Of a DNA stretch of 64,000 bases, positions 3 to 64,000 are shown in pieces. The stretch comes from Verrucomicrobiia bacterium (GTDB lineage Bacteria > Verrucomicrobiota > Verrucomicrobiia > Limisphaerales > UBA8199), in NCBI GenBank assembly GCA_036524155.1, contig DATDCV010000045.1:260-64259 (forward strand). Direction: 5' to 3'. The notes under the pieces were generated by a model that saw only the letters and a program-made list of their open reading frames with translations, did no database searches and had not been told where the DNA came from. A program made the translations under genes and the position numbers. Numbering within the stretch: position 1 is the stretch's first letter; each line of letters opens with the position of its first letter.

Positions 3-1085
3 AAAAACATATTGGTGATTTCGATGGCCGGGATCGGCGACACGATCCTGGCAACGCCGCTCATCCACGAGTTGCGCGCGAATTTCCCCCAGGCGCGCAT
101 CGATGCGCTGGTGCTGTGGGCTGGGTCGAAGGACATCCTCGAGGGAAACCCGCACCTGAATCATATCTATCAGCGAAACCTGCTCAAACAAACCAGGCTC
201 GAATCGCTGCGATTCTTGCTTTCGGTCAGAAAAAACCGCTACGACCTCTCCCTCAACACGCACCCGCAGAGCCGGCGTGCTTATCGCGTGATCGCCCGGA
301 TTATCGGCGCGCCGCTCCGTATCAGCCATGTTTACGATTCGTCCGGGGCCGCCGACCGGCTGCTGGTGAATCGGACGCTGGCGCAGGATTACACCAGGCA
401 CTCGGTCGATTTGAACCTGGATATCCTCCGCCGGCTCGACAAAAAACCGGTGCTGCCCGGACACCAACTGGAGCTCTATCTCTCCCCGCAGGACGAAAGC
501 TGGGCGGCATCTTTCTTAGTCTCGCATCAGCTTCAGGGCCGGCAAATCCTCGGCCTCCACGCCGGCTCGGGTGGCACAAAGAACCTGGCGCTCAAACGCT
601 GGCCGCTGGAACAGTACATCCGGTTGGTCGCAACAATGCGGCAAGCGCGGCCCGATCTGGCGGTGCTGCTCTTCGGAGGACCGGACGAAGAGAGCGAGAT
701 TCAAAAAGTGCTTTCCGCGAATCCGTCGCCGCTGGTGATTCGGGTGCCCAGCCGCAGCTTGCGGGAGGCGGGCGCGCTGATGAAACTCTGCAGCGTTTTC
801 CTGAGCGTCGATACCGCGTTGATGCACATCGCCGCGGCCGTGAAAACACCAAGGCAAATCGTGATCGAGGCCTTTACGCTCAATAAGACGAACGAGCCAT
901 TCGGAAACCCGTACACGCTGATTCCGAACCCGGCCATCGCGGGCAGAAATCTCGAGTACTACAAGTATGATGGGTTGGGAATAAAGGGCGCCACTGAGGA
1001 CTTGGTCCGCATGATGGGCGCGGTGACCGTCGACGCCGTCTCCAACGCGATCCAAAAGGCGCTCGGCTGCGCAGCCAGCCATTAG
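3..1085 (+). CDS. Glycosyltransferase family 9 (ADP-heptose:LPS heptosyltransferase-like); 5' end probably cut by window edge
   Basis: ORF 12..1085. Frame stays open back to nt 3 (KNILVISMAGIGDTILATP looks like a GT9 N-terminus just after Met). HAGSGG...KRWP and VDTALMHIAAA motifs. Confidence 0.8.
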   Translation, partial: KNILVISMAGIGDTILATPLIHELRANFPQARIDALVLWAGSKDILEGNPHLNHIYQRNLLKQTRLESLRFLLSVRKNRYDLSLNTHPQSRRAYRVIARIIGAPLRISHVYDSSGAADRLLVNRTLAQDYTRHSVDLNLDILRRLDKKPVLPGHQLELYLSPQDESWAASFLVSHQLQGRQILGLHAGSGGTKNLALKRWPLEQYIRLVATMRQARPDLAVLLFGGPDEESEIQKVLSANPSPLVIRVPSRSLREAGALMKLCSVFLSVDTALMHIAAAVKTPRQIVIEAFTLNKTNEPFGNPYTLIPNPAIAGRNLEYYKYDGLGIKGATEDLVRMMGAVTVDAVSNAIQKALGCAASH

Positions 1086-1275: not shown

Positions 1276-2334
<1,059 letters not shown>

Positions 2335-49695: not shown

Positions 49696-51219
49696 ATGAA
49701 AACCCTCGCCATCATTCTCGTGCTCGCCGCCTCCTACCTGGCCGCCCTGGGCCAGGGGCAGGTGCAGTTCCAGAACTACGTTCCGTCCACCACGCCAGCG
49801 ATCGATGCGCCGGTGTATTTGTACCATATGGGCGGCGCACGCCCGGATTATAGCAATCCCTTGTGGCGGGTCGCCTTGCTTGGCGGGCCAACCACGGCCA
49901 CCCCAGCCTCTTCAACGAACGTGGGTACGCTCAGCCAGTTGTATCATCCCACAATCACGAGCCTCACCTGGTTCAACTTCGGCATGGGCACTAATGCCGG
50001 CTATGCAGACGTTCGCACGAACGCTGCCAGGGTTGTCCCCGGTGTGGACTGGGGCGGCACCGCCCTGGTTCAAGTGGTGGCCTGGGAGGGCAACTACTAT
50101 GACTGGGCTGACGCCTACTCCTGGGCGGTGTCCGGCGGCCCTTATGTGCTCATTGGCATGTCAAACCCGCTGACTTTGAGGTTGCCCAACGGCCCTACGG
50201 ACGGAAACCTCACCTTCCTCTGGGGTTTGAACTCTTTCGCACTGGGGTGGGCTGGAGGTCCGTCCTTCTGGAGTTACACGGGACCAGCAGACCAAACAGT
50301 CAGTGCCGGCGATCCCGTAACACTAGCCGTTTCTGTCGATGCCTGGCCCGTTCCTGATTTCCAATGGTATTTCAATGGGGTTGCCCTCGCGGGAGCCAAC
50401 TCGAGTTGCCTCCAAATCCCGAGCGCCCAGCCGACGGACGCGGGCAGTTACTATGCAATTCTGACGGATCCCATGTTTTTGCTTTGGACTTACACCACTG
50501 GTGTCGCCACAGTGACAGTGCGGGTGCCCCCGGGTATCGCGTTACAGCCTCAAAGCCAGACGGCAGTCGCCGGCTCCGGCACCGTGTTTCGGGTAAGCGC
50601 GACTGGCGACGCGCCTTTGGGCTGCCAATGGTTCTTCAACGGCAGCACCCCGCTCGGCACGGGGACTTCGCTCAAGCTCACCGCGCTCGAATCCCGGAAC
50701 ATCGGCGCCTACACGGTGGTCGTCACCAATGTTTGGGGCGCCGTCACCAGCACGCCGGCGATGCTGAATGTGATTGCACCGGTGGACACGACCCGGGCCC
50801 TTGGTGTCGTTGGCACCGCCCAGAACGGGACCGCTATGAACCTGGAGACCGCCAGGCAATTATCCGGGGCGCCGAGCTGGCTACCGCTGGTCGAAAACGT
50901 GATGGCCGGAACCAACACCAGCCAGGTGTATGTCGATTGGCCCATGCAGCCGGCCCCTGACTTCCTGCGGCTTTACCGGGCATGGCAGACGAATGGTGTG
51001 AACCAGCCGCCGATGTTGAGCATCCACCTGGTTTCGGGGATCACGTTAACCGGAACCGCTGGCAGCTCGGTGCGCATCGATTACATCAACCAAATCGGCC
51101 CGACGGATGCCTGGGTGACGCTGGCGACTGTCCCGCTGACCAACACCTCGCAACTTTACTTCGACACTTCAGCCATCGGCCCGCCGCCGAGGCTGTACCG
51201 GCTGGTGTCGCCGCCGTAG
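49696..51219 (+). CDS. Secreted mosaic protein S1: signal peptide, GQVQF-N-domain, 2 Ig-like domains, common C-terminal domain
   Basis: MKTLAIILVLAASYLAALGQGQVQFQNY. FQWYFNG and CQWFFNG are I-set-like Ig motifs. Ends VRIDYINQIGPTDAWVTLATV...RLYRLVSPP. Confidence 0.88.
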   Translation: MKTLAIILVLAASYLAALGQGQVQFQNYVPSTTPAIDAPVYLYHMGGARPDYSNPLWRVALLGGPTTATPASSTNVGTLSQLYHPTITSLTWFNFGMGTNAGYADVRTNAARVVPGVDWGGTALVQVVAWEGNYYDWADAYSWAVSGGPYVLIGMSNPLTLRLPNGPTDGNLTFLWGLNSFALGWAGGPSFWSYTGPADQTVSAGDPVTLAVSVDAWPVPDFQWYFNGVALAGANSSCLQIPSAQPTDAGSYYAILTDPMFLLWTYTTGVATVTVRVPPGIALQPQSQTAVAGSGTVFRVSATGDAPLGCQWFFNGSTPLGTGTSLKLTALESRNIGAYTVVVTNVWGAVTSTPAMLNVIAPVDTTRALGVVGTAQNGTAMNLETARQLSGAPSWLPLVENVMAGTNTSQVYVDWPMQPAPDFLRLYRAWQTNGVNQPPMLSIHLVSGITLTGTAGSSVRIDYINQIGPTDAWVTLATVPLTNTSQLYFDTSAIGPPPRLYRLVSPP

Positions 51220-51449
51220 CGCGCAATGGATGAAGGGCCAAGGATGAAGAAGGTTACGGAAGAACGAAAGGACCTCCTCTCCCCGGCCCTCTCCTCCAGA
51301 GGAGGAGAGGGCGACGGCGGGCGGGGCTTATTCCCTTTCTGCGCCGGCAGATGGGAGGGAGAAAGCCGGTGCGAATTGGTCCCCCTCTCCGCCTTTGGGG
51401 GAGAGGGGACAGGGGAGAGGTGGCCGTCGAAAAACTGTTTACGCACTCT
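51220..51449. repeat. Conserved intergenic cassette (short form)
   Basis: ggttacggaagaacgaaaggacctcctctccccggccctctcctcc hairpin module plus the GEG hairpin (51381-51425). Shared with three other intergenic regions. Confidence 0.85.
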
Positions 51450-52964
51450 ATGAAAACTTTCGCCATCACTCTCGTGCTCGCCGCCTCCTGCCTGTCCGCG
51501 CCGGCCCAGGGGCAAGTGCAATTCCGGAATTATGTTTCGAACACAACGCCCGCAGTCGATGCGCGGGTGTCCCTCGGGGGCGCCTCAGGGCCTTTTCCTG
51601 ACTCGAGCAATACTGCCTGGCGCGCCGCGCTGCTCGGGGGGCCGACGACCGCGACACCGGCCTCCACGGAGGGTCCGGGCACGCTCAGCCTGTTGCACCA
51701 TCCCACGATAACGACCCTGACCTGGGTCAATTTCAGAAGCGGGACCACGCCCCCTGCGGCGGCCGGATACGTGAATTATAGCGCCGGCCCTGCTCGCGAG
51801 GTGCCGGGAGTGGATTGGGGCGGCACCGCACTGGTGCAGATGGTCGCGTGGCAGGGCCCTTATACGACATGGATTGATGCCTATAACGCCTTTCGGTGCG
51901 GCGTGTTCGATGCTCGCATCGGGTTCTCAAACCCGTTGACCTTGCGGTTGCCCTACGGTCTTACTGATACACGCTTTACCTATCTCTGGGGCTTGAATTG
52001 GTTCTCAATGGCAAACTTGAGTTCTCCCTACTTTAAGTATAACGGAGGACCGGACGATCAGACTGTGATCGCCGGCGATCCCGTCACACTGAGCGTTTCC
52101 TCGGAGGGATGGCCCGCTCCCGATATCCAGTGGTACTTCAACGGCAATGCCATCCCAGGGGCCAACGATGGTTCCTGGCAGATTCTGCACGCGCGACCTG
52201 AAGACGCCGGCGGTTACTTTGCGGTCATGTCGTGGTGCGGCGAGTACACCTCGCGTGTCGCGACTGTGACGGTTCGCTTGCCACCGGGCATTTCTGCTCA
52301 ACCGCAGAGCCAAACAGTGGCAGCCGGCTCGGGTACGCAGTTGCGCGTGAACGCCACTGGCGACGCGCCTTTGAGCTACCAATGGTTTTTCAACGGCAGC
52401 ACCTCGCTCGGCATCGGGACTTCGCTCAACCTCGCCTCGCTGCAACCGCAGGACTCAGGCGCTTACACTGTCGTAGTTACCAACGTCTGGGGAGCCGTCA
52501 CCAGCGCACCCGCGATGCTGAGTGTGGTTGCGCCCGTGCCCATGGCCCTGGCACCGGGCGTTGTTGTTCACGCGCAAAGCCAGACCTCCTGGAACCTGCA
52601 GTACGCCGACTCTTTTGCGCCCACCAACTACTGGATACCCATGGGCGAGATGTTCCTGGGGACCAACACCAGCCAGGTGCTTGTCGATTCGCCGCCGTTG
52701 CCGGGGGCGCAACGCTCCTACCGGGCGTGGCAGCAGAGCAGCACCAGTCAGCCGCCAGTCTTAAGCATGGAACTGGTCCCCGCGATCCGGTTAACCAACG
52801 CCGTCGGCAGTTCGGTGCGGATTGACTACATAAACCAGGTGGGGCCCATCGACGCCTGGGTGACGCTGGCCACGGTCACCGTCACTGGCACGTCGCAACT
52901 TTACTTCGATAAATCAGCCATAGGCCAGCCGCCGAGGGTGTACCGGGTGGTGACTCTCCCATAG
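51450..52964 (+). CDS. Secreted mosaic protein S2 (same architecture as S1)
   Basis: MKTFAITLVLAASCLSAPAQGQVQFRNY. IQWYFNG and YQWFFNG Ig motifs. Ends VRIDYINQVGPIDAWVTLATV...RVYRVVTLP. ORF 51351.. trimmed to ATG 51450. Confidence 0.88.
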   Translation: MKTFAITLVLAASCLSAPAQGQVQFRNYVSNTTPAVDARVSLGGASGPFPDSSNTAWRAALLGGPTTATPASTEGPGTLSLLHHPTITTLTWVNFRSGTTPPAAAGYVNYSAGPAREVPGVDWGGTALVQMVAWQGPYTTWIDAYNAFRCGVFDARIGFSNPLTLRLPYGLTDTRFTYLWGLNWFSMANLSSPYFKYNGGPDDQTVIAGDPVTLSVSSEGWPAPDIQWYFNGNAIPGANDGSWQILHARPEDAGGYFAVMSWCGEYTSRVATVTVRLPPGISAQPQSQTVAAGSGTQLRVNATGDAPLSYQWFFNGSTSLGIGTSLNLASLQPQDSGAYTVVVTNVWGAVTSAPAMLSVVAPVPMALAPGVVVHAQSQTSWNLQYADSFAPTNYWIPMGEMFLGTNTSQVLVDSPPLPGAQRSYRAWQQSSTSQPPVLSMELVPAIRLTNAVGSSVRIDYINQVGPIDAWVTLATVTVTGTSQLYFDKSAIGQPPRVYRVVTLP

Positions 52965-53502
52965 CGCGGAGCGAACAAAGAACCACGGATGAACACGGTT
53001 ACGGAAGAACGGAAGAGCCTCCTCTCCCCGGCCCTCTCCTCCAGCGGAGGAGAGGGAGGAAGCCGGGGCCGGCGGAAGAACGGGCTGCGGCTTCCGGTCT
53101 CCCTCTACCCGAACGCAAGAAAAGGAGAGAGCCGGCGCGTCTGGTTCCCCCTCTCCGCCTTTGGGGGAGAGGGGAAAGGGGAGAGGTGGCCCTTGCATTC
53201 TTGCGCAACCACGTTCATAAGGAGGGCGAAGCCCCCGTTCGACAGCACGGAAAGTGCGACCACTCAACAGCCCTGGGAACTCGGCCCTTGTAGGAGACGA
53301 CGTAAGGAGTCTCTAATCAAGACCAGCAGGTTCCGAGATTTGAGCGCCCTCGCCGTCGGGGAAACCCGAGAAAAGATCAGAGACTCCTTACGTCGTCTCC
53401 TACAAGCCGGAAAGCGAACGCTGTTCGCCGGGAGAGGGGGCCGTGGGTTTATGGAGCAGTCCTGGTAACTATGCGTGTTTTGAAAAATTGTCGATACTCC
53501 CT
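52965..53502. repeat. Conserved intergenic cassette (long form, 538 bp)
   Basis: Collinear with 60003..60528. Contains hairpin modules, the GEG repeat (53147-53191) and the 28-bp inverted repeat. Confidence 0.9.
53287..53406. other. Perfect 28-bp inverted repeat flanking a 64-nt spacer (hairpin RNA or invertible/mobile element)
   Basis: cttgtaggagacgacgtaaggagtctct (53287-53314) is the exact reverse complement of 53379-53406. Lies 97 nt upstream of the S3 start. Confidence 0.9.
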
Positions 53503-56370
53503 ATGAAAACTCTGTCCATACTTGTCGCCGGCGCGTTGGCGCTGGCTTTTACTCATACTGTCTCTGGGGCGCCCGGCGATCTGGATCCCGCTTTTGACAT
53601 CGGTTCCCGCATTAACGCCTGGGTCCGGGCGATTGCGGTGCAAAGCGACGGAAAGGTCGTGATTGGCGGGGATTTCACTACTGTGCATGGCGCGGTGCGA
53701 AACCGCCTCGCGAGGCTGAACGCGGATGGCCCGGTCGATAGCGGTTTTGAACCTGATGTCTCGGGCGAGACCATCGTAGGGTTGATCTTGGCCGGAGACA
53801 AAGTGCTCATCGCGGGGGAATTGGGAACGATAAATGGTGTGCCGCGCGCAGGGGTGGCGCGCCTGAACGCAGACGGTTCGCTGGACGCTTCGTTTGCGGA
53901 CGGGCTGGCGGATATGACGAACTCTGCCTATCGGGTCATCGCGCGCCAACCGGACGGCAAAGTGCTGGTTGGCGGCTTTCCTCGTTCGATTGGCAGCAGC
54001 GTCACCGATCTCCACAGGTTGAACCAGAACGGCAGCCTGGACCCTTCGTTCGCACCGGTGCTGACGGGGCCAAACCCGTGGATCGGAGCATTAGCAGCGC
54101 AGAGTGATGGCAAAATCCTGGTGGCCGGAACCTTCCAGGCGGTCAACGGCGTGGGCGCAACAAACTTCGCACGGCTCAACCCGGACGGCTCTTTCGACGG
54201 GTCCTTCACAAATGCTTTAGCTGGACGCGACGAGGAGCCAAAGTGCCTCGCGATTCAACCTGACGACAAAATCATCGTGGCGGGGTACTTTCTTTTGGGC
54301 CAGGTCCAATTGAGAGTCGTCCGCCTCAACCCGGACGGTTCGATCGACCATTCGTTTGCCGCGTCTGAGCCGGACGGCACGGTGTATTCCCTCGCATTGC
54401 AGCCGGACGGAAAGATCCTGCTCGGCAACAATGTCCCGCCTTGCTGCATGCGGTTGAACGCCGACGGAACAAAGGACACCGCGTTTCTGAACGGCCTGGC
54501 CGGACCGAATAGCAGCGTCATCGTCCTGGCCGCCCAACCTGACGGCAAAATCGTCATCGGCGGCTTTTTCGAGAGGGTCAACGACGTGGAGTGCACCCCC
54601 CTGGCCCGCCTGAATACCGACGGCTCGCTCGACACCTCGTTCCCTGAGGGCCCTCCGGGACCGAATTTCAATCTCACCGGGCTGGTGGTTCAGCCTGATG
54701 GCAAAGTGGTCATTGCCGGGTCTTTCTATTCGATTAATGGAGTCGCGTGCTCGAGCGTCGCGCGCCTTAACCCGGATGCCACAGTGGACCAAAGTTTTTC
54801 CCCGCCACCCGTTAGCACTCTCAATGAGACACGCTTGACCCTTCAACCTGATGGCAAAATCCTCGTCTATAGCTGGTACGGACTGAGCCGCATTAACCCC
54901 GATGGCACAGGGGATGACCGGTTCCTCGCCGGAACTTCCGTACCCTTGCACGGAATTGTTGCGGCGGTAGGCCTCCAACCCGACGGCAAGATCGTTGCCG
55001 CTGGCCGGATCCCGTCAGTCGGATCAATCGCCCGGGCTAACCTGGTTCGTCTGAACCCTGACGGTTCGCTGGACCTGTCCCTGGCTTGCAGCGTAGGGAA
55101 CGCCGACAGTTGGCTCCATGCCCTGGCCATTCAGCCCGATGGGAAGGTGCTTGTCGGCGGATGGTTTGACACCCTCAATGGAAAGCACAGGCCGTCCCTC
55201 GCCCGCGTAAACCGCGACGGTTCGAGCGATCCTTCATTCCTGAATGGCCTGGATGGGCCGAATGCAGTCGTCACCGCCATTCTTGTTCAACGAGATGGGA
55301 ACATCATCATTGGAGGGGAATTCACTGCTGTGAACGGCACGCCCGTCAACCGGATGGCACGCCTTCACGCCGACGGCTCGCTCGATGACACATTTGTCGC
55401 CGGCCTGAATGGCACGGTTTACTGCATGCGACTGCAGGGCGACGGCAAGGTGCTCCTGGGCGGCGGGTTTAGCGCCGTGAACGGCCTAACGGCCCATAAC
55501 ATCGCCCGGCTCAATCTCGACGGCTCGCTGGATCCCTCTTTCACGGTCAGCACGGATTATTCGGTGCTTGCCCTGGAACAGCAGCGGAACGGTAAGATTA
55601 TGATTGGCGGCCAATTCGACGTGGTAAACCAAACGCCCAATCGCTTTGTCGCCCGGCTCATGGGTGATTTCTCTGTGCCGTCGATTCTTACCCAACCGCA
55701 GTCCATGACGGTCGAGACCGGCGCCCCCTGCCGGTTTTCAGTGAGGCCCGCGGGGTATCTCCCGGTCGGTTACCAATGGTACTTCACCTCGCAGCAAACC
55801 ACTGCGCCACTCGTGGGCTGCACGAATGCGAGTCTTGAGTGGCCGTCAGCCAGCCCAGTTCTGGCCGGCGCTTACACTGTCGTTCTTACGAACGATGGTG
55901 GAGCCGTAACCAGCGCGCCGGCTATGCTGAGCGTCATTCCATCGGTTCAAAGAAGATCGGTTCCCGGCCTGAATGTGCGGGGCCAGCCTGGCGGAACCAT
56001 CCGCCTGGACTATGTTCCTCTTCTGGCGGATAACCCCGGTTGGGCTGTGTTCGGCACGGTTGAGATGGCTACCGCTTCGCAGTGGTGCTTCGACACCGAG
56101 ACGCCGCTGGCGGCTGCGCGGTTTTACCGCGCCTGGCAGCCCACCGATCCGGTCAACCCCCCGGCCATTGACCTGCGGCTCGTCCCGGCGATTACGCTCA
56201 GCGGCTCGATCGGCAGTTCGGTGCGCATCGATTACATCAACCAAATCGGCCCGACCGATGCCTGGGTGACGCTGGCGACCGTCACGCTCACCAACACTTC
56301 GCAGGAGTATTTCGATACCTCCGCCGTAGGCCAGCCGGCGAGGGCGTACCGGCTGGTGACTCTTCCATAG
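53503..56370 (+). CDS. Secreted mosaic protein S3: signal peptide, ~14 delta-60/DUF5122 beta-propeller repeats, Ig-like domain, common C-terminal domain
   Basis: Repeats of ...ARLN(A/P)DGSLD.SF...QPDGKI(L/V)(V/I)GG.F..VNG. YQWYF Ig motif. Ends VRIDYINQIGPTDAWVTLATV...RAYRLVTLP. Trimmed to ATG 53503. Confidence 0.9.
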   Translation: MKTLSILVAGALALAFTHTVSGAPGDLDPAFDIGSRINAWVRAIAVQSDGKVVIGGDFTTVHGAVRNRLARLNADGPVDSGFEPDVSGETIVGLILAGDKVLIAGELGTINGVPRAGVARLNADGSLDASFADGLADMTNSAYRVIARQPDGKVLVGGFPRSIGSSVTDLHRLNQNGSLDPSFAPVLTGPNPWIGALAAQSDGKILVAGTFQAVNGVGATNFARLNPDGSFDGSFTNALAGRDEEPKCLAIQPDDKIIVAGYFLLGQVQLRVVRLNPDGSIDHSFAASEPDGTVYSLALQPDGKILLGNNVPPCCMRLNADGTKDTAFLNGLAGPNSSVIVLAAQPDGKIVIGGFFERVNDVECTPLARLNTDGSLDTSFPEGPPGPNFNLTGLVVQPDGKVVIAGSFYSINGVACSSVARLNPDATVDQSFSPPPVSTLNETRLTLQPDGKILVYSWYGLSRINPDGTGDDRFLAGTSVPLHGIVAAVGLQPDGKIVAAGRIPSVGSIARANLVRLNPDGSLDLSLACSVGNADSWLHALAIQPDGKVLVGGWFDTLNGKHRPSLARVNRDGSSDPSFLNGLDGPNAVVTAILVQRDGNIIIGGEFTAVNGTPVNRMARLHADGSLDDTFVAGLNGTVYCMRLQGDGKVLLGGGFSAVNGLTAHNIARLNLDGSLDPSFTVSTDYSVLALEQQRNGKIMIGGQFDVVNQTPNRFVARLMGDFSVPSILTQPQSMTVETGAPCRFSVRPAGYLPVGYQWYFTSQQTTAPLVGCTNASLEWPSASPVLAGAYTVVLTNDGGAVTSAPAMLSVIPSVQRRSVPGLNVRGQPGGTIRLDYVPLLADNPGWAVFGTVEMATASQWCFDTETPLAAARFYRAWQPTDPVNPPAIDLRLVPAITLSGSIGSSVRIDYINQIGPTDAWVTLATVTLTNTSQEYFDTSAVGQPARAYRLVTLP

Positions 56371-56645
56371 CACGCAGAGAACAAAGAATCACGGATGAAC
56401 ACGGTTACGGAAGAACGAAAGGGCCTCCTCTCTCCTAAGGGCGGTGGGGGCGCGGAATGGAAAGCCGAAGCCCGAAATCCGAAATCCGAAACCCGAAAGA
56501 AATCCGAAGGCCGAGATCCGAACAGCACTGAAGGCGCCGCAACTGGTTCCCCCTCTCCGCCTTTGGGGGAGAGGGGACAGGGGAGAGGTGGCCCTGGAAG
56601 GTTTGTGGTCCTCATAAACGTTAAACTAAACAGTCGATACTCCAT
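56371..56645. repeat. Conserved intergenic cassette (short form)
   Basis: Starts cacgcagagaacaaagaatcacggatgaacacggttacggaagaacgaaagg, near-identical to 60003-. GEG repeat at 56549-56593. Confidence 0.85.
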
Positions 56646-59600
56646 ATGAAGACTCTTCCCACCGCGCTCGTGCTCGGCGCCTCCTGCCTGGCCGCACTGG
56701 GCCAGGGACAGGTCCAGTTCAGGAACTACTCCTCCACCACAACGCCGACAATTAACGCGCCGGTTTATCTCGACGGCGGAATACCGGGCCAATTCGCCGA
56801 CAGCAGTTGTCGCGCGGCGTTAATCGGCGGGCCAACCACGGCCACGCCGGCGTCGCTCGACAGCGCAGGCACACTCCCGATGCTTTACAATCCAACGATA
56901 ACGACTCTAACCTGGGTTACTTTCCGCGACCCACCTAACGCCGGTTACGTGAACACCGCGAACGCTGCGCGGCTGGTGCCGGGCGTCGATTGGGGCGGCA
57001 CCGCCCTGGTGCAGATGGTCGGTTGGAAGGGGAACTACAATACCTGGGCGGAGGCTTTTGCCGCCTGGCAAGGGGGGGACTTGACTGTGCTGATCGGCTT
57101 CTCAGAGCCGCTGGTCCTGAGGCTGCCCACCGGTCCGACTGACTCCTATCTTACCTATCTCTGGGGATTGAAACCGTTTACCATCGGCGGCGGCTGCCTG
57201 GGCCCCTATTTTATGGGCTTCACGGTGGTGCCGGTGAGCCAGACGGTAAACCCGGGCGAGTCAGTCACCTTCTCTGCGGGCGCTCAGGCGTGTCCGTACC
57301 CCGTCTTCCAATGGTACTACAATGGCTCTCCGATCGCCGGGGCAATCCAAAGTCACTACCAGATTGCGTCGGCTCAACCTTCCGACGCCGGGGACTATTA
57401 CGCCATTTTGTCAGGCGCGGGGTGGGGCTTACGGACCAGCCCAACGGCCACGCTCGCTGTGCGGCCTTACTCACTGAGCTTTATCCAGCAACCCTCGAGC
57501 CAAACCGTAGCGGCGGGCCAGGCAGTGGATTTCCGAGCGGTCGCCGGGGGAGCTGTTCCCATGTTTTACCAGTGGTTTTTCAATGTCACGAATGCCATCA
57601 GCGCGGCGACAAATTCTATTTTGCATTTGCCGGCGGTGTATTTCCCGCAATCGGGCACGTACGAGGTCGTGGTCAGCAACGCCGTCGGCGCCATAACCAG
57701 TTCCCCGGCCCTGTTGACAGTGCTGGATCCTTACATTTCCAGGCAGCCAAACGATCTGTCACTCCGTGCCGGCCAAACAGCATTTTTATCGGTTGACGCC
57801 GGAGGCTCGCCACTGCTGAGCTGTCAATGGCTGAAGGATGGCGCGTTATTGAGCGATGGCGGCAACCTGTCAGGCGCACGTACGCCCGTCTTAACAATCT
57901 CGAACGTTCTGGGCGCGGACGCCGGAGGTTACGCGGCATGGGTCAGCAATCTCTATGGCGCGGCCACCAGCGCGGTGGCGCGCGTGACGGTGCAGGATCC
58001 GTTCATCACCAGCCAGCCCGTCGGCCAGCGGGTTAATGAAGGTGACGACGTGGTCTTCAGTGTCCAGGCGGGCGGCACAGCGCCGCTCGCGTTCCAATGG
58101 TTGAAAGATGGGGTGCCCCTGGCCGACGAGCTCAACGTGTCCGGGTCACACACCGCCACCCTCACGCTGAAGTCGGTGGATAGCACCGACCAGGGCGCCT
58201 ACCGGGTGATCGTCAGCAATCGTTTCGGTATGTTGTCCAGCGCAGACGCGACGCTCGCCGTAGGTCCTCAAGTCAGTTTCGCGGTGTTACACACTTTCAC
58301 GGGGGCCGATGGCAATGAGCCGTCGCCGAATCTGTTTGTGTCGGGCTCGACACTCTACGGAACTACCATCAACGGCGGCTCAAGCGGAGGAGGGACGGTT
58401 TTTAGGCTCAACACGGACGGCAGCGGCTTTGCGGTTTTGAAGAATTTTCCCGTCGGCACGGTCGAGCAAGGAGCGTTTGGAGGGGTGGTTCCCTCTGGCG
58501 GAAGGTTATACGGGACGACCTGGGGGGATGGCACTCCGTCGGGCTGCGGCACGGTGTTCGCCCTGAACACCGACGGCAGCGGTTATTCCGTCCTGCACCA
58601 GTTCACCGGCGGCGATGGCCGTGAGCCTATGGGCAGCTTGCTGGTCCGGGACGGGATGCTCTTCGGGACGACTTATGAAGGGGGCACCTCATACGGGACG
58701 CTATTCAGGATGGACACGAACGGCCAGAGCCTGACAGTCCTCCACAATTTCACCGGCAACGACGGCGCGTATTCCCACTCGGGCCTGGTGGCCTCAGGCA
58801 GCACGTTGTACGGGACCACTGCCAGCGGTGGCAGCTCATTTAGCGGCCTGGTGTTCCGCATGGAGGTCGATGGCAGCGGCTTCGCGGTCCTGAAGGAATT
58901 TGGCGCTGACGGCGGATGGCCGAGTGACAAGTTGGTTCTGTCCGGGCCAACTTTGTACGGCACCACGCGCTACGCCGGCCAAGGCTGCGGTTCGGTGTTC
59001 AAGCTCAACACCGACGGGACAGGATTCACAGTGCTCAAACAATTCACGACCAATGACGTGGGAATCGATCCCTGGGACGGTCTGGTCATCAGCGGCAGCA
59101 CGCTTTATGGAAGCTTGTTGGGGGGCACTGTGGGCATTGGAGCTGTCTACAGGGTCGGCACTGACGATGCGGGTTACACCGTCTTGAAGACCTTCAGCGG
59201 CGGCAGCGATGGGGCTCGTCCCTATGCGCTCGTCTTGTCTGGCGATACCTTGTACGGGGCAACTCAAATGGGCGGCGCCTTGAACCACGGCGTTATCTTC
59301 TCGATGTCCGTAGCTGGGCCGAGCGTGCTGTCGCCGCCCGTCAGTCAGACCGCAGAAGCGGGCACTGCGGTGGCTTTTCGGGCCCGGGGCCGCGGCGGTT
59401 CCTCACTGACTTACCAATGGCTGTTCAACGGCACTAACTTAATCGGAGCCACGTCCACCAACGCACTGCTGCGACTTCCGGCGGTCCAATTCGCCGACGC
59501 TGGCTCTTACTCGGTAATTCTCAGTAACGTTTATGGTTCGGTAACGAGTGCGCCCGCCATGCTGAGCGTCATTTCGCGCGTGGAACGGCGGCCGGTGGCG

Positions 59601-60002
59601 GCTCTGAGCCTGGGCGGTGCGATCGGGCAATCCTTGAACCTGCAAATCACGTCCGCTCTGCAGCCCGGACCTGCCTGGGCGCCGCTGGATACGGTTACAC
59701 TTACAAACAGCGGCCAACTCTACGTGGACGTTTCCCCGTTGTCAGCCGAACGGTTCTATCGTTCACGGCAAGATGAGAGCGCCGGCATCGTTCCCTCCCT
59801 GGCGGTTCATCTCATACCAGCCATCAAACTGACCGGTGCCATCGGCAGTTCCGTGCGCATCGATTACATCAACCAGGTAGGGCCAATCGATGCCTGGCTG
59901 CCGCTAGCGACCGTCACCCTAACTGATACTTCGCAGGAGTACTGGGACACGTCGGTAATAGGCCAGGCGCCGAGGCTGTATCGGTTGGTGACTCTGCCAT
60001 AG
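56646..60002 (+). CDS. Secreted mosaic protein S4: signal peptide, GQVQF-N-domain, 4 Ig-like domains, ~7 GloVer (Gloeo_Verruco) repeats, Ig-like domain, common C-terminal domain
   Basis: MKTLPTALVLGASCLAALGQGQVQFRNY. FQWYYNG/YQWFFN/CQWLKDG/FQWLKDG/YQWLFNG. LYGTT..GG..G.GTVF.LNTDGSG repeats. Ends ...RLYRLVTLP. Confidence 0.9.
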   Translation: MKTLPTALVLGASCLAALGQGQVQFRNYSSTTTPTINAPVYLDGGIPGQFADSSCRAALIGGPTTATPASLDSAGTLPMLYNPTITTLTWVTFRDPPNAGYVNTANAARLVPGVDWGGTALVQMVGWKGNYNTWAEAFAAWQGGDLTVLIGFSEPLVLRLPTGPTDSYLTYLWGLKPFTIGGGCLGPYFMGFTVVPVSQTVNPGESVTFSAGAQACPYPVFQWYYNGSPIAGAIQSHYQIASAQPSDAGDYYAILSGAGWGLRTSPTATLAVRPYSLSFIQQPSSQTVAAGQAVDFRAVAGGAVPMFYQWFFNVTNAISAATNSILHLPAVYFPQSGTYEVVVSNAVGAITSSPALLTVLDPYISRQPNDLSLRAGQTAFLSVDAGGSPLLSCQWLKDGALLSDGGNLSGARTPVLTISNVLGADAGGYAAWVSNLYGAATSAVARVTVQDPFITSQPVGQRVNEGDDVVFSVQAGGTAPLAFQWLKDGVPLADELNVSGSHTATLTLKSVDSTDQGAYRVIVSNRFGMLSSADATLAVGPQVSFAVLHTFTGADGNEPSPNLFVSGSTLYGTTINGGSSGGGTVFRLNTDGSGFAVLKNFPVGTVEQGAFGGVVPSGGRLYGTTWGDGTPSGCGTVFALNTDGSGYSVLHQFTGGDGREPMGSLLVRDGMLFGTTYEGGTSYGTLFRMDTNGQSLTVLHNFTGNDGAYSHSGLVASGSTLYGTTASGGSSFSGLVFRMEVDGSGFAVLKEFGADGGWPSDKLVLSGPTLYGTTRYAGQGCGSVFKLNTDGTGFTVLKQFTTNDVGIDPWDGLVISGSTLYGSLLGGTVGIGAVYRVGTDDAGYTVLKTFSGGSDGARPYALVLSGDTLYGATQMGGALNHGVIFSMSVAGPSVLSPPVSQTAEAGTAVAFRARGRGGSSLTYQWLFNGTNLIGATSTNALLRLPAVQFADAGSYSVILSNVYGSVTSAPAMLSVISRVERRPVAALSLGGAIGQSLNLQITSALQPGPAWAPLDTVTLTNSGQLYVDVSPLSAERFYRSRQDESAGIVPSLAVHLIPAIKLTGAIGSSVRIDYINQVGPIDAWLPLATVTLTDTSQEYWDTSVIGQAPRLYRLVTLP

Positions 60003-60528
60003 CACGCAGAGAACAAAGAACCACGGATGAACACGGTTACGGAAGAACGAAAGGACCTCCTCTCCCCGGCCCTCTCCTCCAAAGGAGGAGAGGGAGGAAG
60101 CCGGCGTGGCTGGTTCCCCCACTCCGCTAGCGGAGCAGAGGGAGAAAGCCGAGGTCAGTTGAAGAACGGGCTGCGGTTTCTGGTCCCCCTCTCCGCCTTT
60201 GGGGGAGAGGGGAAAGGGGAGAGGTGGCCGTCACTTTCGGAAGCGTTCATGGGGAGGGCGAAACCCCCGTTCGACAGCACCGAAGGTGCGGCCACTCAGC
60301 AGCCTTGGGAACTCGGCCCTTGTAGGAGACGACGTAAGGAGTCTCTAATCAAGACCAGGACGCTCCGAAATTTGAGCGCGCTCGCCGTCGGTGGCATCCG
60401 CGAGAACATCAGAGACTCCTTACGTCGTCTCCTACAAGCCGGAGAACTGTTCGCCGGGAGAGGGGGCCGTTGGTTTGTGGAGCCGTCCCGGTTGCGATCC
60501 GCGTTTTGAACAAACGTCGATATTCCCT
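60003..60528. repeat. Conserved intergenic cassette (long form, 526 bp)
   Basis: Collinear with 52965..53502. GEG repeat at 60185-60229. 28-bp inverted repeat at 60319-60438. Confidence 0.9.
60319..60438. other. Second copy of the perfect 28-bp inverted repeat with 64-nt spacer
   Basis: Arms 60319-60346 and 60411-60438 are identical to the 53287 copy. The spacer differs at 12 of 64 positions. Lies 91 nt upstream of the S5 start. Confidence 0.9.
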
Positions 60529-62397
60529 ATGAAAACCCGATTTGTGCGCTATTCACCGATACGCGGCTTGACCGCACTTGTGGTGCTGCTTTGGGCCTTG
60601 CAGTCAGGCATGCAGGCAGCAACGTTCTCGAATCCGGCGCCCGTCCTCATCCTGGACCATACGAATGCCAGTCCCTACCCATCGAGCGTAGTAGTCGAGG
60701 GTGTGGCTGGGCGAATAACGTCCGTGACGACGACTCTCCTGGGACTGTCACACGCCTTTGTTTCTGACGTGGATGTGATGCTCGCCGGGCCATCCGGCCA
60801 ACCCGTGCTGCTGATGGCGCATGTCGGCGCGGGGAGTTCAGCAAGCAACCTGGACCTCACGTTTGATGATTCGGGAGCAACGCTGCCTGAGATGGGGGTC
60901 GTCGTTTCGGGGACTTACCGTCCGACCCAGTTCGGTGCCACGCCGAGCTTTTCGCCACCCGCGCCCGCGGAGCCGTATGGACCCGCGCTTTCAAGCCTCA
61001 CAAACCTGACCGCCAACGGGACGTGGAGCCTGTTTGTGCGCGATGATGCGCTGGGCGACAATGGGGTCCTGACGAAAGGATGGTCGCTCACCATCACCAC
61101 GGAAGGCATCCCCCCGGTTATCGCGCCGATGTCCTCGCTGACGGCCGAAGAAGGTTCCACCATTCGCCTGCCGGCCCAGGTTTCGGGAGATGCGCCCTTC
61201 AGTTATCAGTGGTATTTTAACGGAAACACGCCGATTCCCGGCGGGACGCGCTCGGCCTTGCAGTTGCCGGATGTCCGTTCGACGAACACCGGGGCTTACT
61301 CCGTGGTGGTGGCCAATACCTTCGGGGCCGTGACCAGCGCGCCCGCGATGCTCAGCGTCATTCCGCCAGTCGAGAGGAGCACGGCTCCGGGGCTTTTGCT
61401 GACCGCCGACGCGGGAACTGATCTCTACCTGGAGTACGCAAACTCGCTGACTCCTTCGCCCAACTGGGCCGGACTCGCCACCGTGAGAATGGGAGGGGTA
61501 TTTGGTCCCACTTCGCAGTGGTATTTCGACGGAGTCGCAGCCTCTGCTGGGCAGCGTTCTTACCGGGTATGGCACGACAACGAGGGGAGCATTGTTCCGG
61601 GATTGCAGTTGTACCCGGTTCCGGCAATCATGCTCAGAGGCGTGGCGGGCAACTCGGTCTGGATCGACTATATCAACCAGGTCGGCCCCACGGACGCGTG
61701 GGCGCAGCTTGCTACCGTGGTGCTGGCGAACAGTTCCCAATTTTACTTCGACACTTCGGCAGTGGGCCAACCGACGAGACTGTACCGGGCCGCGACAACG
61801 TTTAAGAACCTGGATTTCGAGCTGGCGGCTGGGATTCCCGCCACGCCCGGATACCCTGCCAGCGCCAACTTCGATCAGGCTCTCCCCGGTTGGAGCGGTT
61901 ACTGCGGGGCGGGGCAGCAAATGGCAGTGCAATACGACTATGAATGGCTGGACACAGCCGGAATCGCCATTTTTGATACGAATTGCGTTTCTGAATCCGT
62001 GACAGGAGTACTTCACCGCCGCTATTGTGTCTGCCTGTATTCCGGGTTTGAGCCTGGCGTGCAGCCTTACCACGATGTCCAAACGTGGCTGGCCCAGACC
62101 GCCCGCGTTCCGCCCAGTGTCTCAAGCATTTTGTTGAACTATAAACGCTCTCGGGACTGGGGTGATGGAGAAATCCAGGTGACGTTCAACGGAATCGGCA
62201 TTTCCTTGCGCTTTGTGAGCTCGGGCCTGGACGGTTCCAGTGTCCTGGGCGGGGATGTCAGCCAGTTTGCAGGTCCGGTTGGAGAATTGCGGGTGATTGC
62301 GCCGGTCTCGCTTTCACATTACCCCTCCCACTGGCGGAACATCTTCATGCTCGATTATATCCGCTTCTCCACTACGCCGTTAAGCCCATGTCTGTGA
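60529..62397 (+). CDS. Secreted mosaic protein S5: signal peptide, proprotein-convertase P-domain-like module, Ig-like domain, common domain (internal), extra ~200-aa C-terminal domain
   Basis: SHAFVSDVDVMLAGPSGQ...ANGTWSLFVRDDALGDNGVLTKGWSLTIT is P-domain-like. YQWYFNG. VWIDYINQVGPTDAWAQLATV...RLYRAATTF is followed by NLDFE...GWSG... Trimmed to ATG 60529. Confidence 0.88.
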   Translation: MKTRFVRYSPIRGLTALVVLLWALQSGMQAATFSNPAPVLILDHTNASPYPSSVVVEGVAGRITSVTTTLLGLSHAFVSDVDVMLAGPSGQPVLLMAHVGAGSSASNLDLTFDDSGATLPEMGVVVSGTYRPTQFGATPSFSPPAPAEPYGPALSSLTNLTANGTWSLFVRDDALGDNGVLTKGWSLTITTEGIPPVIAPMSSLTAEEGSTIRLPAQVSGDAPFSYQWYFNGNTPIPGGTRSALQLPDVRSTNTGAYSVVVANTFGAVTSAPAMLSVIPPVERSTAPGLLLTADAGTDLYLEYANSLTPSPNWAGLATVRMGGVFGPTSQWYFDGVAASAGQRSYRVWHDNEGSIVPGLQLYPVPAIMLRGVAGNSVWIDYINQVGPTDAWAQLATVVLANSSQFYFDTSAVGQPTRLYRAATTFKNLDFELAAGIPATPGYPASANFDQALPGWSGYCGAGQQMAVQYDYEWLDTAGIAIFDTNCVSESVTGVLHRRYCVCLYSGFEPGVQPYHDVQTWLAQTARVPPSVSSILLNYKRSRDWGDGEIQVTFNGIGISLRFVSSGLDGSSVLGGDVSQFAGPVGELRVIAPVSLSHYPSHWRNIFMLDYIRFSTTPLSPCL

Positions 62398-62514
62398 TGA
62401 GCATTGAGGATCGGGGATTGAGGATCGAGAACGGTCCGCTGCGGAGGGCGGACCCCACCGAAGCCTCGCGCGCGACGGCACCATCGCGCTGTTCGCAGTA
62501 ACCGCAGTGAATTG

Positions 62515-64000
62515 ATGAAGTATATGTGGCGTGCAATCTCTTTACTCTTGGTAATTTTGGCTGTTCAAGTCCCACGGACCCTGTGTCAGGCGCAAACCTA
62601 CAGGGTCTTGCACTTTCTCGATGCGACCGATGGTTTCGCGTACGGCCGCCTCCTGGTTTCAGGAAACACGCTCTACGGAACCACGAGCGGTCAGGGGGAG
62701 ATTTTCACGCTCGCCACCGACGGCACCGGATTCACCAGGTTCCAGTTTCCCGGCTTTTCCTCCGATGGAGGATTGGTGGAGTCCGGCCCGATCCTGTACG
62801 GAACGGTTCAAGGTCTGAACGGCGCAGTGGTCTCAGTGAACACCGACGGCACGGGTTTCAAAGTTTTGAAGGCTTTCAACCTCGCTGATGGAGCAGATCC
62901 GCTATCGGAGCTGGTGTTGGTGGGAACGACGCTTTACGGGACCACCTATCTGGGTGGACCGACCAATTACCTTAGCCCGTATGGCTGTGGAACCGTTTTT
63001 AAGGTTAACACGGACGGGACCGGCTTCAGCTCGCTTTGGGCATTCTCAGGAAGTGATGGGCTAAAGCAGCCGCGATCGGCCCTGGTTGTATCCGGAGCCT
63101 CCTTGTTTGGCACTGCCGCCGGTGATGGTTTTCACGGGGGCGCCATCTTTAGGATTAACCAGGACGGTTCCGGCTGCACGGTGCTGAGAACACTCTCTAT
63201 GCCGCTGGACGGGGCGTCTCCGGCGAGTTTGCTGCTGTGCGGCACCACGCTATACGGAACTTGCGGTGCTGGTGGCGCATTCAATCGGGGGACGCTTTTC
63301 CGGCTTGAGACCAATGGCACCGGGTTTGCCGTGCTGAAGAACTTCTCCGGTGCGGATGGTTCGGCTCCTGTGGGGGGCCTGGTGCAGGTCGATGGGACCC
63401 TCTACGGGGTCACCGGTAGCGGAGGTTACGGATTCGCTCCTGGCGGCATGTCAGAGGGCTACGGCACCATCTTCCAGATTGAGACCAATGGCGGGGGTTA
63501 CTTCGTGCTGAAGGAATTTGCGCCCCCTGACGGCGCTACGCCTGGTGCCCCGCTGGCTGCCTCTGGTCACACGCTCTATGGGTCCACCCTGTTCGGCGGG
63601 ATATCAAACTATGGCACGATATTCAGCTTCAACTTGCCACTCGCTCCCTGGTTCATCTCCTCGCCTTCCGACCAGGTCGTGGCAGCGGGCCAGGACGGTT
63701 CGTTTACCGTCACCGCGGCCGGCTCCCGGCCCCTGTACTACCAATGGGTCTTTAACGGCACCAATCTGCTGCGGGCCGCAACCAATTCGATCCTGCAGCT
63801 TTCTTCGGTGTCTTTTTCAAACGCCGGCTCGTACGCCGCGGTCGTGACAAACGTGTACGGTTCCGCCACAAGTTCACCCGCCCGGTTGCGAGTCATCTTT
63901 TCGTCAACGGTGACCAATTGCAGTGAAGCGGACTTGCGCGCGGCGATGGCGGCAGGCGGGGTAGTGCGCGTCGAGTGCGATGGAACCTTCCCCCTCAGCA
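62515..64000 (+). CDS. Secreted mosaic protein S6 (3' end beyond window): signal peptide, ~7 GloVer repeats, Ig-like domain, start of a further domain
   Basis: Not in the supplied ORF track. My own translation from ATG 62515 (MKYMWRAISLLLVILAVQVPRTLCQAQ) is stop-free to nt 64000. LYGTT...G.(I/V/L)F..N.DG(T/S)GF repeats. YYQWVFNG Ig motif. In-frame TGA at 62419-62421 upstream. Confidence 0.85.
   Translation, partial: MKYMWRAISLLLVILAVQVPRTLCQAQTYRVLHFLDATDGFAYGRLLVSGNTLYGTTSGQGEIFTLATDGTGFTRFQFPGFSSDGGLVESGPILYGTVQGLNGAVVSVNTDGTGFKVLKAFNLADGADPLSELVLVGTTLYGTTYLGGPTNYLSPYGCGTVFKVNTDGTGFSSLWAFSGSDGLKQPRSALVVSGASLFGTAAGDGFHGGAIFRINQDGSGCTVLRTLSMPLDGASPASLLLCGTTLYGTCGAGGAFNRGTLFRLETNGTGFAVLKNFSGADGSAPVGGLVQVDGTLYGVTGSGGYGFAPGGMSEGYGTIFQIETNGGGYFVLKEFAPPDGATPGAPLAASGHTLYGSTLFGGISNYGTIFSFNLPLAPWFISSPSDQVVAAGQDGSFTVTAAGSRPLYYQWVFNGTNLLRAATNSILQLSSVSFSNAGSYAAVVTNVYGSATSSPARLRVIFSSTVTNCSEADLRAAMAAGGVVRVECDGTFPLS

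Follow-up and report, generated by a model that had tools for sequence, protein, structure and literature searches.

Why should the arms of an inverted repeat stay identical at two places in a bacterial gene array when the DNA that they enclose has drifted? The question is raised by two 120-nt elements in a 64,000-nt stretch of a Verrucomicrobiia bacterium genome (hereafter the window; contig C45 of the assembly G000, which comprises 8.9 Mb in 765 contigs at 60.7% GC), one upstream of S3, which encodes a DUF5122 beta-propeller plus Ig protein, and one upstream of S5, which encodes a P-domain plus Ig protein (Table 1). The initial annotation of this DNA had described four mutually exact 28-nt arms, spacers of equal length that differ at 12 of 64 positions and a distance of ~90-100 nt to the start codons, and all three observations could be reproduced: the same 28-mer, CTTGTAGGAGACGACGTAAGGAGTCTCT, is present at the four sites with 0 mismatches when read on the + or - strand (0/100 shuffles matched), a comparison of the spacers gave exactly 12 differences, and 96 nt separate the first element from the ATG at 53503 (S3) and 90 nt the second from the ATG at 60529 (S5). 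Three readings had been offered for them, namely an invertible DNA switch (inverton), a stable hairpin in the 5'-UTR and a small mobile element. The last of these held up and can be refined. Each 120-nt element is very probably (with a probability of roughly 85%) a REPIN, an inverted doublet of GTAG-tagged REPs whose family is tied to a divergent clade of RAYT transposases. The element is an ordinary kind of repeat in a little-studied phylum, and no DNA switch.

Table 1. Coordinates of the two REPINs in the window and of their parts.
Feature	Position	Strand	Remark
REPIN copy 1, head-to-head REP doublet with GTAG tags outside, 120 nt	53287..53406	.	Perfect 28-bp arms
Left REP unit, copy 1	53287..53314	+	Fits the family pattern GTAG-N5-GA-S-GT-N-A-S'-GA-N5; stem covariation confirmed
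GTAG tag of this unit, after CTT	53290-53293
Stem GAGAC of this unit	53294-53298
Core of this unit	53299-53308		GACGTAAGGA
Stem GTCTC of this unit	53309-53313
Spacer of copy 1, loop of the long hairpin, 64 nt	53315..53378	.	12/64 positions unlike copy 2
Right REP unit, copy 1	53379..53406	-	On the - strand identical to the left unit
REPIN copy 2, 120 nt, in the paralogous intergenic region	60319..60438	.	Arms as in copy 1; flanks homologous
Left REP unit, copy 2	60319..60346	+	Same 28-mer
Spacer of copy 2, 64 nt	60347..60410	.
Right REP unit, copy 2	60411..60438	-	Same 28-mer

All four window arms carry the GTAG tag, and the inverted repeat stretches to 31-32 nt if one mismatch is allowed. Both doublets are homodimers, which accounts for the perfect pairing of their arms. 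Folded as single-stranded DNA, copy 1 reached -40.8 kcal/mol (z = -9.7) and copy 2 reached -38.9 kcal/mol (z = -10).

Searching the whole genome with the arm at up to 6 mismatches returned 47 matches. The units share one design, consisting of (C/A)TTGTAG, a 5-nt stem half, the core GA-S-GTNA-S'-GA and a complementary 5-nt 3' stem half, and as a single strand this design folds into 5 bp, two G.A mismatches, one C:G or G:C pair and a GTNA tetraloop, with GTAG preceding the stem. A head-plus-loop pattern that fixes the GTAG head and the core and leaves pairing free matched 112 units, and allowing up to one mismatch gave 229 matches (versus 68 in the reversed genome); we thus put the size of the family at roughly 110 to 230 units in the 8.9-Mb genome. 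The units are spread over more than 80 contigs, and GTAG lies directly 5' of the stem in at least 102 of 134 structural matches (the reversed-genome control yielded 21 structural matches). Their midpoints are depleted from ORFs of at least 300 aa, a crude proxy that we used in place of gene calls, with 21% falling inside such ORFs as compared to 73% of the genome.

Among the 112 units, whose selection did not depend on pairing, Watson-Crick pairs were found at stem positions 2-5 in 92-97%, with A:T and C:G swaps, and S was complementary to S' in 108. The covariation analysis that had been proposed at the outset bore this out: computed on 44 distinct sequences, the covariation score was 0.537, compared to 0.162 for shuffled alignments, with none of 500 shuffles equalling it and slid controls reaching at most 0.124. 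The pairing and covariation results together establish that the REP unit is a structure-constrained hairpin. Passages of Di Nocera et al. 2013 (PMC3733652) give as the defining signature of REPs a GTAG tag followed by a short stem-loop, and the units described here, being short stem-loops with a terminal GTAG, high dispersed copy number and a mostly extragenic location, qualify as GTAG-tagged REPs.

The outer stem divides the family into subfamilies, namely GCGAC/GTCGA (31 units), CCGCC/GGCGG (27), GCGCC/GGCGA (16), the window type GAGAC/GTCTC (13) and GGCAC/GTGCA (3). Two flavours of the core exist, GACGTNAGGA and GAGGTNACGA, distinguished by one C:G pair swapped to G:C.

REP units occur as singletons and also as doublets, and the doublets are strongly biased in orientation. 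Counting units at up to one mismatch, we found 49 doublets with GTAG outside, none with GTAG inside and 8 in tandem. Doublets with GTAG outside, there termed HH and given spacers of 20-100 bp, are among the arrangements of GTAG-tagged REPs covered in the same passages of Di Nocera et al. 2013 (PMC3733652), which also place such REPs in Verrucomicrobia. In the genome analysed here the gap between the 24-nt cores of a doublet is mostly 17-35 nt; in the window doublets it is 66 nt, among the longest in the family, and at 64 nt the window spacer has about twice the usual length. A comparison of flanks across the 49 doublets detected just 10 similar pairs, and about 10 of the GCGCC-type doublets have a common spacer, suggesting that the doublet spreads as a unit. 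Flanks are thus largely unrelated within the family, whereas those of the two window copies are homologous to each other. The inverted, hairpin-forming doublets and their orientation bias match REPINs as defined by Bertels and Rainey 2011 (PMC3116915).

Many doublets outside the window join both core flavours (for example C165:6337-6448, C442:19574-19655 and C31:10549-10619). We had also considered C34 and C470 as carriers of the same doublet in wholly unrelated flanks, but dropped this pair, as by eye one flank is similar and the other unrelated. A CRISPR repeat, which direct copies on C534 had brought to mind, was ruled out by the irregular spacings and inverted orientations of the copies.

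Inspection of the ORFs between REP copies led to a candidate transposase. On C534, a 210-aa ORF (934-1566) lies between family REPs at 870-892(-) and 1562-1584(+), and its protein matches the NCBIfam model NF047646 'REP-associated tyrosine transposase' (REP_Tyr_transpos) with E = 4e-12 and 46 bits, the cut-off being 80 bits. A Pfam search that included PF01797 (Y1_Tnp) gave no match at E <= 1, such that the curated thresholds of both PF01797 and NF047646 were left unpassed. Comparison with known structures required a profile: the single sequence found no match in the PDB, and the family profile found one only, 4ER8 (E = 1.2e-5), the structure of E. coli TnpA-REP in complex with a REP hairpin, to which both the HUH and the Tyr motif could be aligned. 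Among PDB folds, the AlphaFold model (pLDDT 77) was likewise closest to 4ER8_A (rmsd 3.0 A over 135 columns, TM 0.61, E = 2.9e-5), with IS200/IS605 transposases next, and H82 and H84 of the HUH motif together with Y141, N145 and P146 (Y141-x3-N145-P146) are invariant in 40 homologues. On the strength of these motifs, the predicted fold and the gene context, we assign the protein to a divergent clade of RAYTs. It has more than 2,500 homologues, which are labelled Verrucomicrobia or Limisphaerales and, where named, are called 'REP element-mobilizing transposase RayT', 'putative transposase' or 'hypothetical protein'.

The genome holds two copies of this RAYT, the second being a paralogue on C31 that is 58% identical and has CCGCC-type REPs on its flanks; the 765-contig assembly yielded none with REPs of the window's GAGAC stem type on its flanks. 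A Pfam Y1_Tnp search of the genome yielded 17 genes, none of them flanked by the window's REP family, and other hairpin repeats were present there. These IS200/RAYT-like genes lie on C38, C523, C657, C228, C457, C402, C191, C630, C232, C171, C714, C512 and other contigs, and most have distinct hairpin repeats of their own, such that at least 5 or 6 REP/RAYT systems appear to coexist in the genome.

The association between repeat and transposase extends to related genomes. The REP pattern was present in 19 of 41 relatives, with anything from 0 to 264 matches per genome and tens to hundreds in many of them, and the backwards control gave at most one match in any of the 41. A RAYT homologue was detected in 8 of the 41 genomes; all 8 were REP-positive, and none of the 22 REP-negative genomes had one. 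Family REPs adjoin the gene at 9 of 12 RAYT loci, with a stem type that varies from locus to locus, and in one relative (G027, contig C13) a RAYT with 70% identity has on its flanks TGTAGGAGACGACGTAAGGAGTCTC, which matches the core of the window's arm exactly. In seven REP-rich relatives no RAYT homologue was found at E <= 1e-10. These are MAGs, in which a repeat-flanked gene is easily lost in assembly, and the absence may reflect either gene loss or assembly gaps.

In-frame stops occur within the match at 5 of the 12 RAYT loci (G027:C13, G018:C5, G011:C7, G024:C7 and G038:C284). The small numbers of REPs in G024 (4), G038 (3) and G011 (12) would fit a decay of the repeats after loss of the RAYT, a pattern that is not followed by G018, with 112 REPs, or by G027, with 40 REPs and two other intact RAYT copies.

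How, then, did the two window copies arise? The intergenic regions that contain them (52965-53502 and 60003-60528) are homologous and ~88% identical, with 8 differences between the copies in the 75 nt upstream of the elements. Given these homologous flanks, we conclude from the sequence comparison that the copies arose by duplication of an intergenic cassette along with the gene array and not by two separate insertions; for the same reason, they carry no direct sign of mobility. The 12 spacer differences are all confined to the central 49 nt, and identity between the copies runs past the left arm by 13 and 12 nt and past the right arm by 3 and 5 nt. The probability of observing 0 differences over 56 arm positions is ~8e-4 to 3e-3 at the background rate that corresponds to ~88% identity, and 9e-6 at the rate of the spacer. 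A third paralogue of the REPIN-bearing cassette, with spacer and downstream flank homologous to those of the window copies, was identified at C319:15266-15515, where the right arm has 3 changes and the left arm has undergone rearrangement, an insertion of ~130 nt from a different repeat module lying beside or in it. The 'absolute conservation' of the arms that had first been claimed therefore stands for the window copies, which are identical, but is contradicted by the C319 paralogue; arm conservation is strong yet short of absolute.

The sequence of events may accordingly be sketched as follows, with the REPIN being copied together with its host cassette within the tandem array of secreted-protein genes, after which the arms would have stayed identical as the loop and flanks drifted. 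The arms are probably identical since a change in either would break the long hairpin and the site recognised by the RAYT, placing both under purifying selection; correction of the arms against each other (homogenisation) is the alternative. The original suggestion of selection or homogenisation at the arms is a reasonable one. Selection alone does not obviously explain why identity continues 12-13 nt past the left arm.

The surroundings of the elements are themselves rich in repeats. Six secreted-protein genes, arranged as three pairs, occupy positions 49696-64000 of the window; the spacers within pairs are short (117-275 nt), whereas those between pairs are long (526-538 nt) and bear the REPINs. 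Both long spacers (52965-53502 and 60003-60528) are mosaics of three genome-wide repeat families. The S2-S3 spacer comprises two GGAGAGGG-type hairpin modules in addition to the REPIN, with a CCCTCTCCTCC..GGAGGAGAGGG hairpin module, which is found on more than 100 contigs, at ~53003-53064 and a 'GEG' hairpin module at ~53133-53196. The region upstream of S1, compared with the REPIN-bearing spacers as a possible 'empty site', showed no similarity to them. Elsewhere, the genome has ~10 copies of a fusion between a half-REP (GTAGG.G.CGACGTAAGGAG) and a conserved module, AATCGGATCCGCAAAAAGCGGCGGCATGG, that runs into the GGAGGAGAGGG hairpin repeat (for example at C319:15266-15400, C592:17392-17450, C637:44818-44880 and C245:980-1040), and within it AAGGAG followed by ATG resembles a ribosome-binding site and short ORF, a resemblance that may be due to chance. 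The long spacers of this rapidly evolving array of secreted-protein genes are thus assembled from REPs and two other hairpin modules, and such repeats may aid recombination between paralogues there.

REP/BIME hairpins in E. coli stabilise upstream mRNA, and the elements could be viewed as locus-specific cis-regulatory RNA hairpins, REPIN-derived or not, in which a 28-bp duplex within the S2-S3 and S4-S5 intercistronic transcript controls the downstream gene pair by serving as an RNase III site, as a 3'-end stabiliser of the upstream mRNA or as an attenuator. Such a hairpin is physically plausible, dominating the RNA fold of 53270-53510 (-103.4 kcal/mol, z = -5.8), and the position of the element at boundaries between gene pairs and never within pairs would suit it, as would the identity of the arms between paralogous cassettes whose loop and flanks have diverged. 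Read-through into the element is also possible, since scanning both strands of 52900-53600 and 59950-60650 revealed no sigma-70-like promoter in the stretch that leads from the upstream gene to S3 or S5, although the scan was a simple one and the promoters of this phylum are poorly known; a scan of both intergenic spacers for intrinsic terminators found none at the element. However, a function specific to this locus is difficult to reconcile with a REP unit of which the genome has more than 100 copies, single or in doublets, in contexts unrelated to one another, and with a paralogous cassette on C319 whose left arm is disrupted. Moreover, a purely structural constraint would permit compensatory changes, of which none were seen, and the window as a whole had no Rfam match at gathering thresholds. 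We therefore consider a locus-specific regulatory hairpin to be unlikely as an account of the element, and regard a hairpin in the transcript as a plausible and known side effect of REPs that is secondary to the element's identity.

Perfect inverted repeats upstream of variable secreted-protein genes are also what an inverton would present, with a recombinase flipping the 64-bp spacer between the 28-bp repeats and thereby phase-varying the downstream surface-protein genes. The genome-wide search for further copies and for a recombinase that the initial annotation had recommended recovered more than 100 REP units and, with PF00589 (tyrosine) and PF00239 (serine), 19 and 2 recombinase matches, all of them elsewhere in the genome and none on contig C45. 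The promoter scan found no promoter-like site in the spacer on either strand, the spacer has the same orientation in both window copies and in the C319 paralogue, and the GTAG-REP family of which the arms are members is dispersed over the genome, has singletons among its units and is tied to a RAYT. An invertible segment of 64 bp would fall far below the length of known invertons, and it would be hard to loop. Inversion is accordingly an extremely improbable explanation. A classical MITE, that is, a deletion derivative of a DDE-transposase insertion sequence with the 28-bp arms as its terminal inverted repeats, would be short, non-coding, palindromic and present in several copies, as these elements are, and it had been anticipated that further copies with random flanks and target duplications would make the element simply another MITE. 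Unrelated flanks were indeed found; target duplications were not seen, neither copy having a target-site duplication in its flanks (...CTCGGCC and CCGGAAAG...) and a search for direct repeats in the flanks ...GAACTCGGCC and CCGGAAAGCG... returning none. A MITE would also leave the arms' other properties aside, as they occur singly and in tandem, each with its own covarying hairpin and GTAG tag, and the gene linked to them encodes an HUH/Y1 enzyme and no DDE transposase, making this explanation very unlikely as well. A candidate phase-variation switch is thereby struck off, and the perfect arms are accounted for by membership in a known class of repeats, be they selfish or domesticated.

For the REPIN reading, a mechanism can be drawn by analogy with E. 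coli TnpA-REP. We infer that the RAYT would bind the folded, single-stranded REP and cut beside the GTAG tag, and that binding and cutting together would spread or maintain the doublets. RAYT genes of this clade lie directly between family REPs, and the stem type on their flanks varies among them. Were the spacer transcribed, a strong RNA hairpin would in addition be formed by the 28-bp duplex between the pairs S1-S2, S3-S4 and S5-S6, in the manner of E. coli REPs.

A more far-reaching proposal, which we find possible though doubtful, concerns the division of labour within the hairpin. The loop-proximal core (tandem G.A pairs, a swappable C:G/G:C pair and GTNA) would be invariant across this verrucomicrobial order and the outer 5-bp stem would vary and track the RAYT paralogue, such that the RAYT clade might read the loop as a common handle and the stem as a specificity code; the long-spacer doublets of the window might, in turn, have been kept as RNA or DNA hairpins that mark where one two-gene unit of the surface-protein array ends and the next begins.

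For Limisphaerales-type Verrucomicrobia, these results put on record a family of REPs together with its RAYT clade, which comprises more than 2,500 proteins that are invisible to Pfam and lie below the NCBIfam cut-off. The matching of stem subfamilies to RAYT paralogues also provides a clean natural system in which the reading of hairpins by HUH transposases could be investigated.

Compared to known systems, the elements closely resemble the REPINs of Pseudomonas fluorescens and other Proteobacteria (PMC3116915; PMC3337134), which likewise consist of an inverted REP pair with a short spacer that forms one long hairpin, number tens to hundreds of mostly extragenic copies with one doublet orientation strongly over-represented, and fall into several subfamilies per genome, each with its own RAYT gene flanked by the repeats. 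They differ from these in their phylum, Verrucomicrobiota, and in an unrelated REP sequence; in a RAYT clade so divergent that Pfam Y1_Tnp misses it; and in that the window copies spread by cassette duplication and have a spacer of twice the family norm.

A further parallel is the GTAG-REP superfamily, including GTAG-17 to GTAG-20 of Opitutus terrae, as presented in passages of Di Nocera et al. 2013 (PMC3733652). Compared by description, both have a terminal GTAG and a short stem-loop, both occur as singletons, tandem forms and head-to-head doublets with spacers of 20-100 bp, both are divided into stem and loop subfamilies, and both are found in Verrucomicrobia. The Opitutus terrae doublets, in the same passages, have spacers of 1-2 bp, unlike the 64 nt of the window, and the family described here is set apart from the superfamily by a conserved loop-proximal core, GA-S-GTNA-S'-GA, and a variable outer stem.

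With the E. coli system, finally, the RAYT shares the HUH and Tyr motifs and a similar predicted fold (TnpA-REP, PDB 4ER8), its putative substrate being a GTAG-tagged hairpin, although identity to 4ER8 is 17% and the RAYT has an extra C-terminal region of ~50 aa. The two loop flavours that are paired in doublets loosely recall the Y and Z REPs of E. coli BIMEs, which are known to bind IHF and gyrase, and the mosaic intergenic groups that REPs form here with other repeat modules resemble E. coli BIME clusters.
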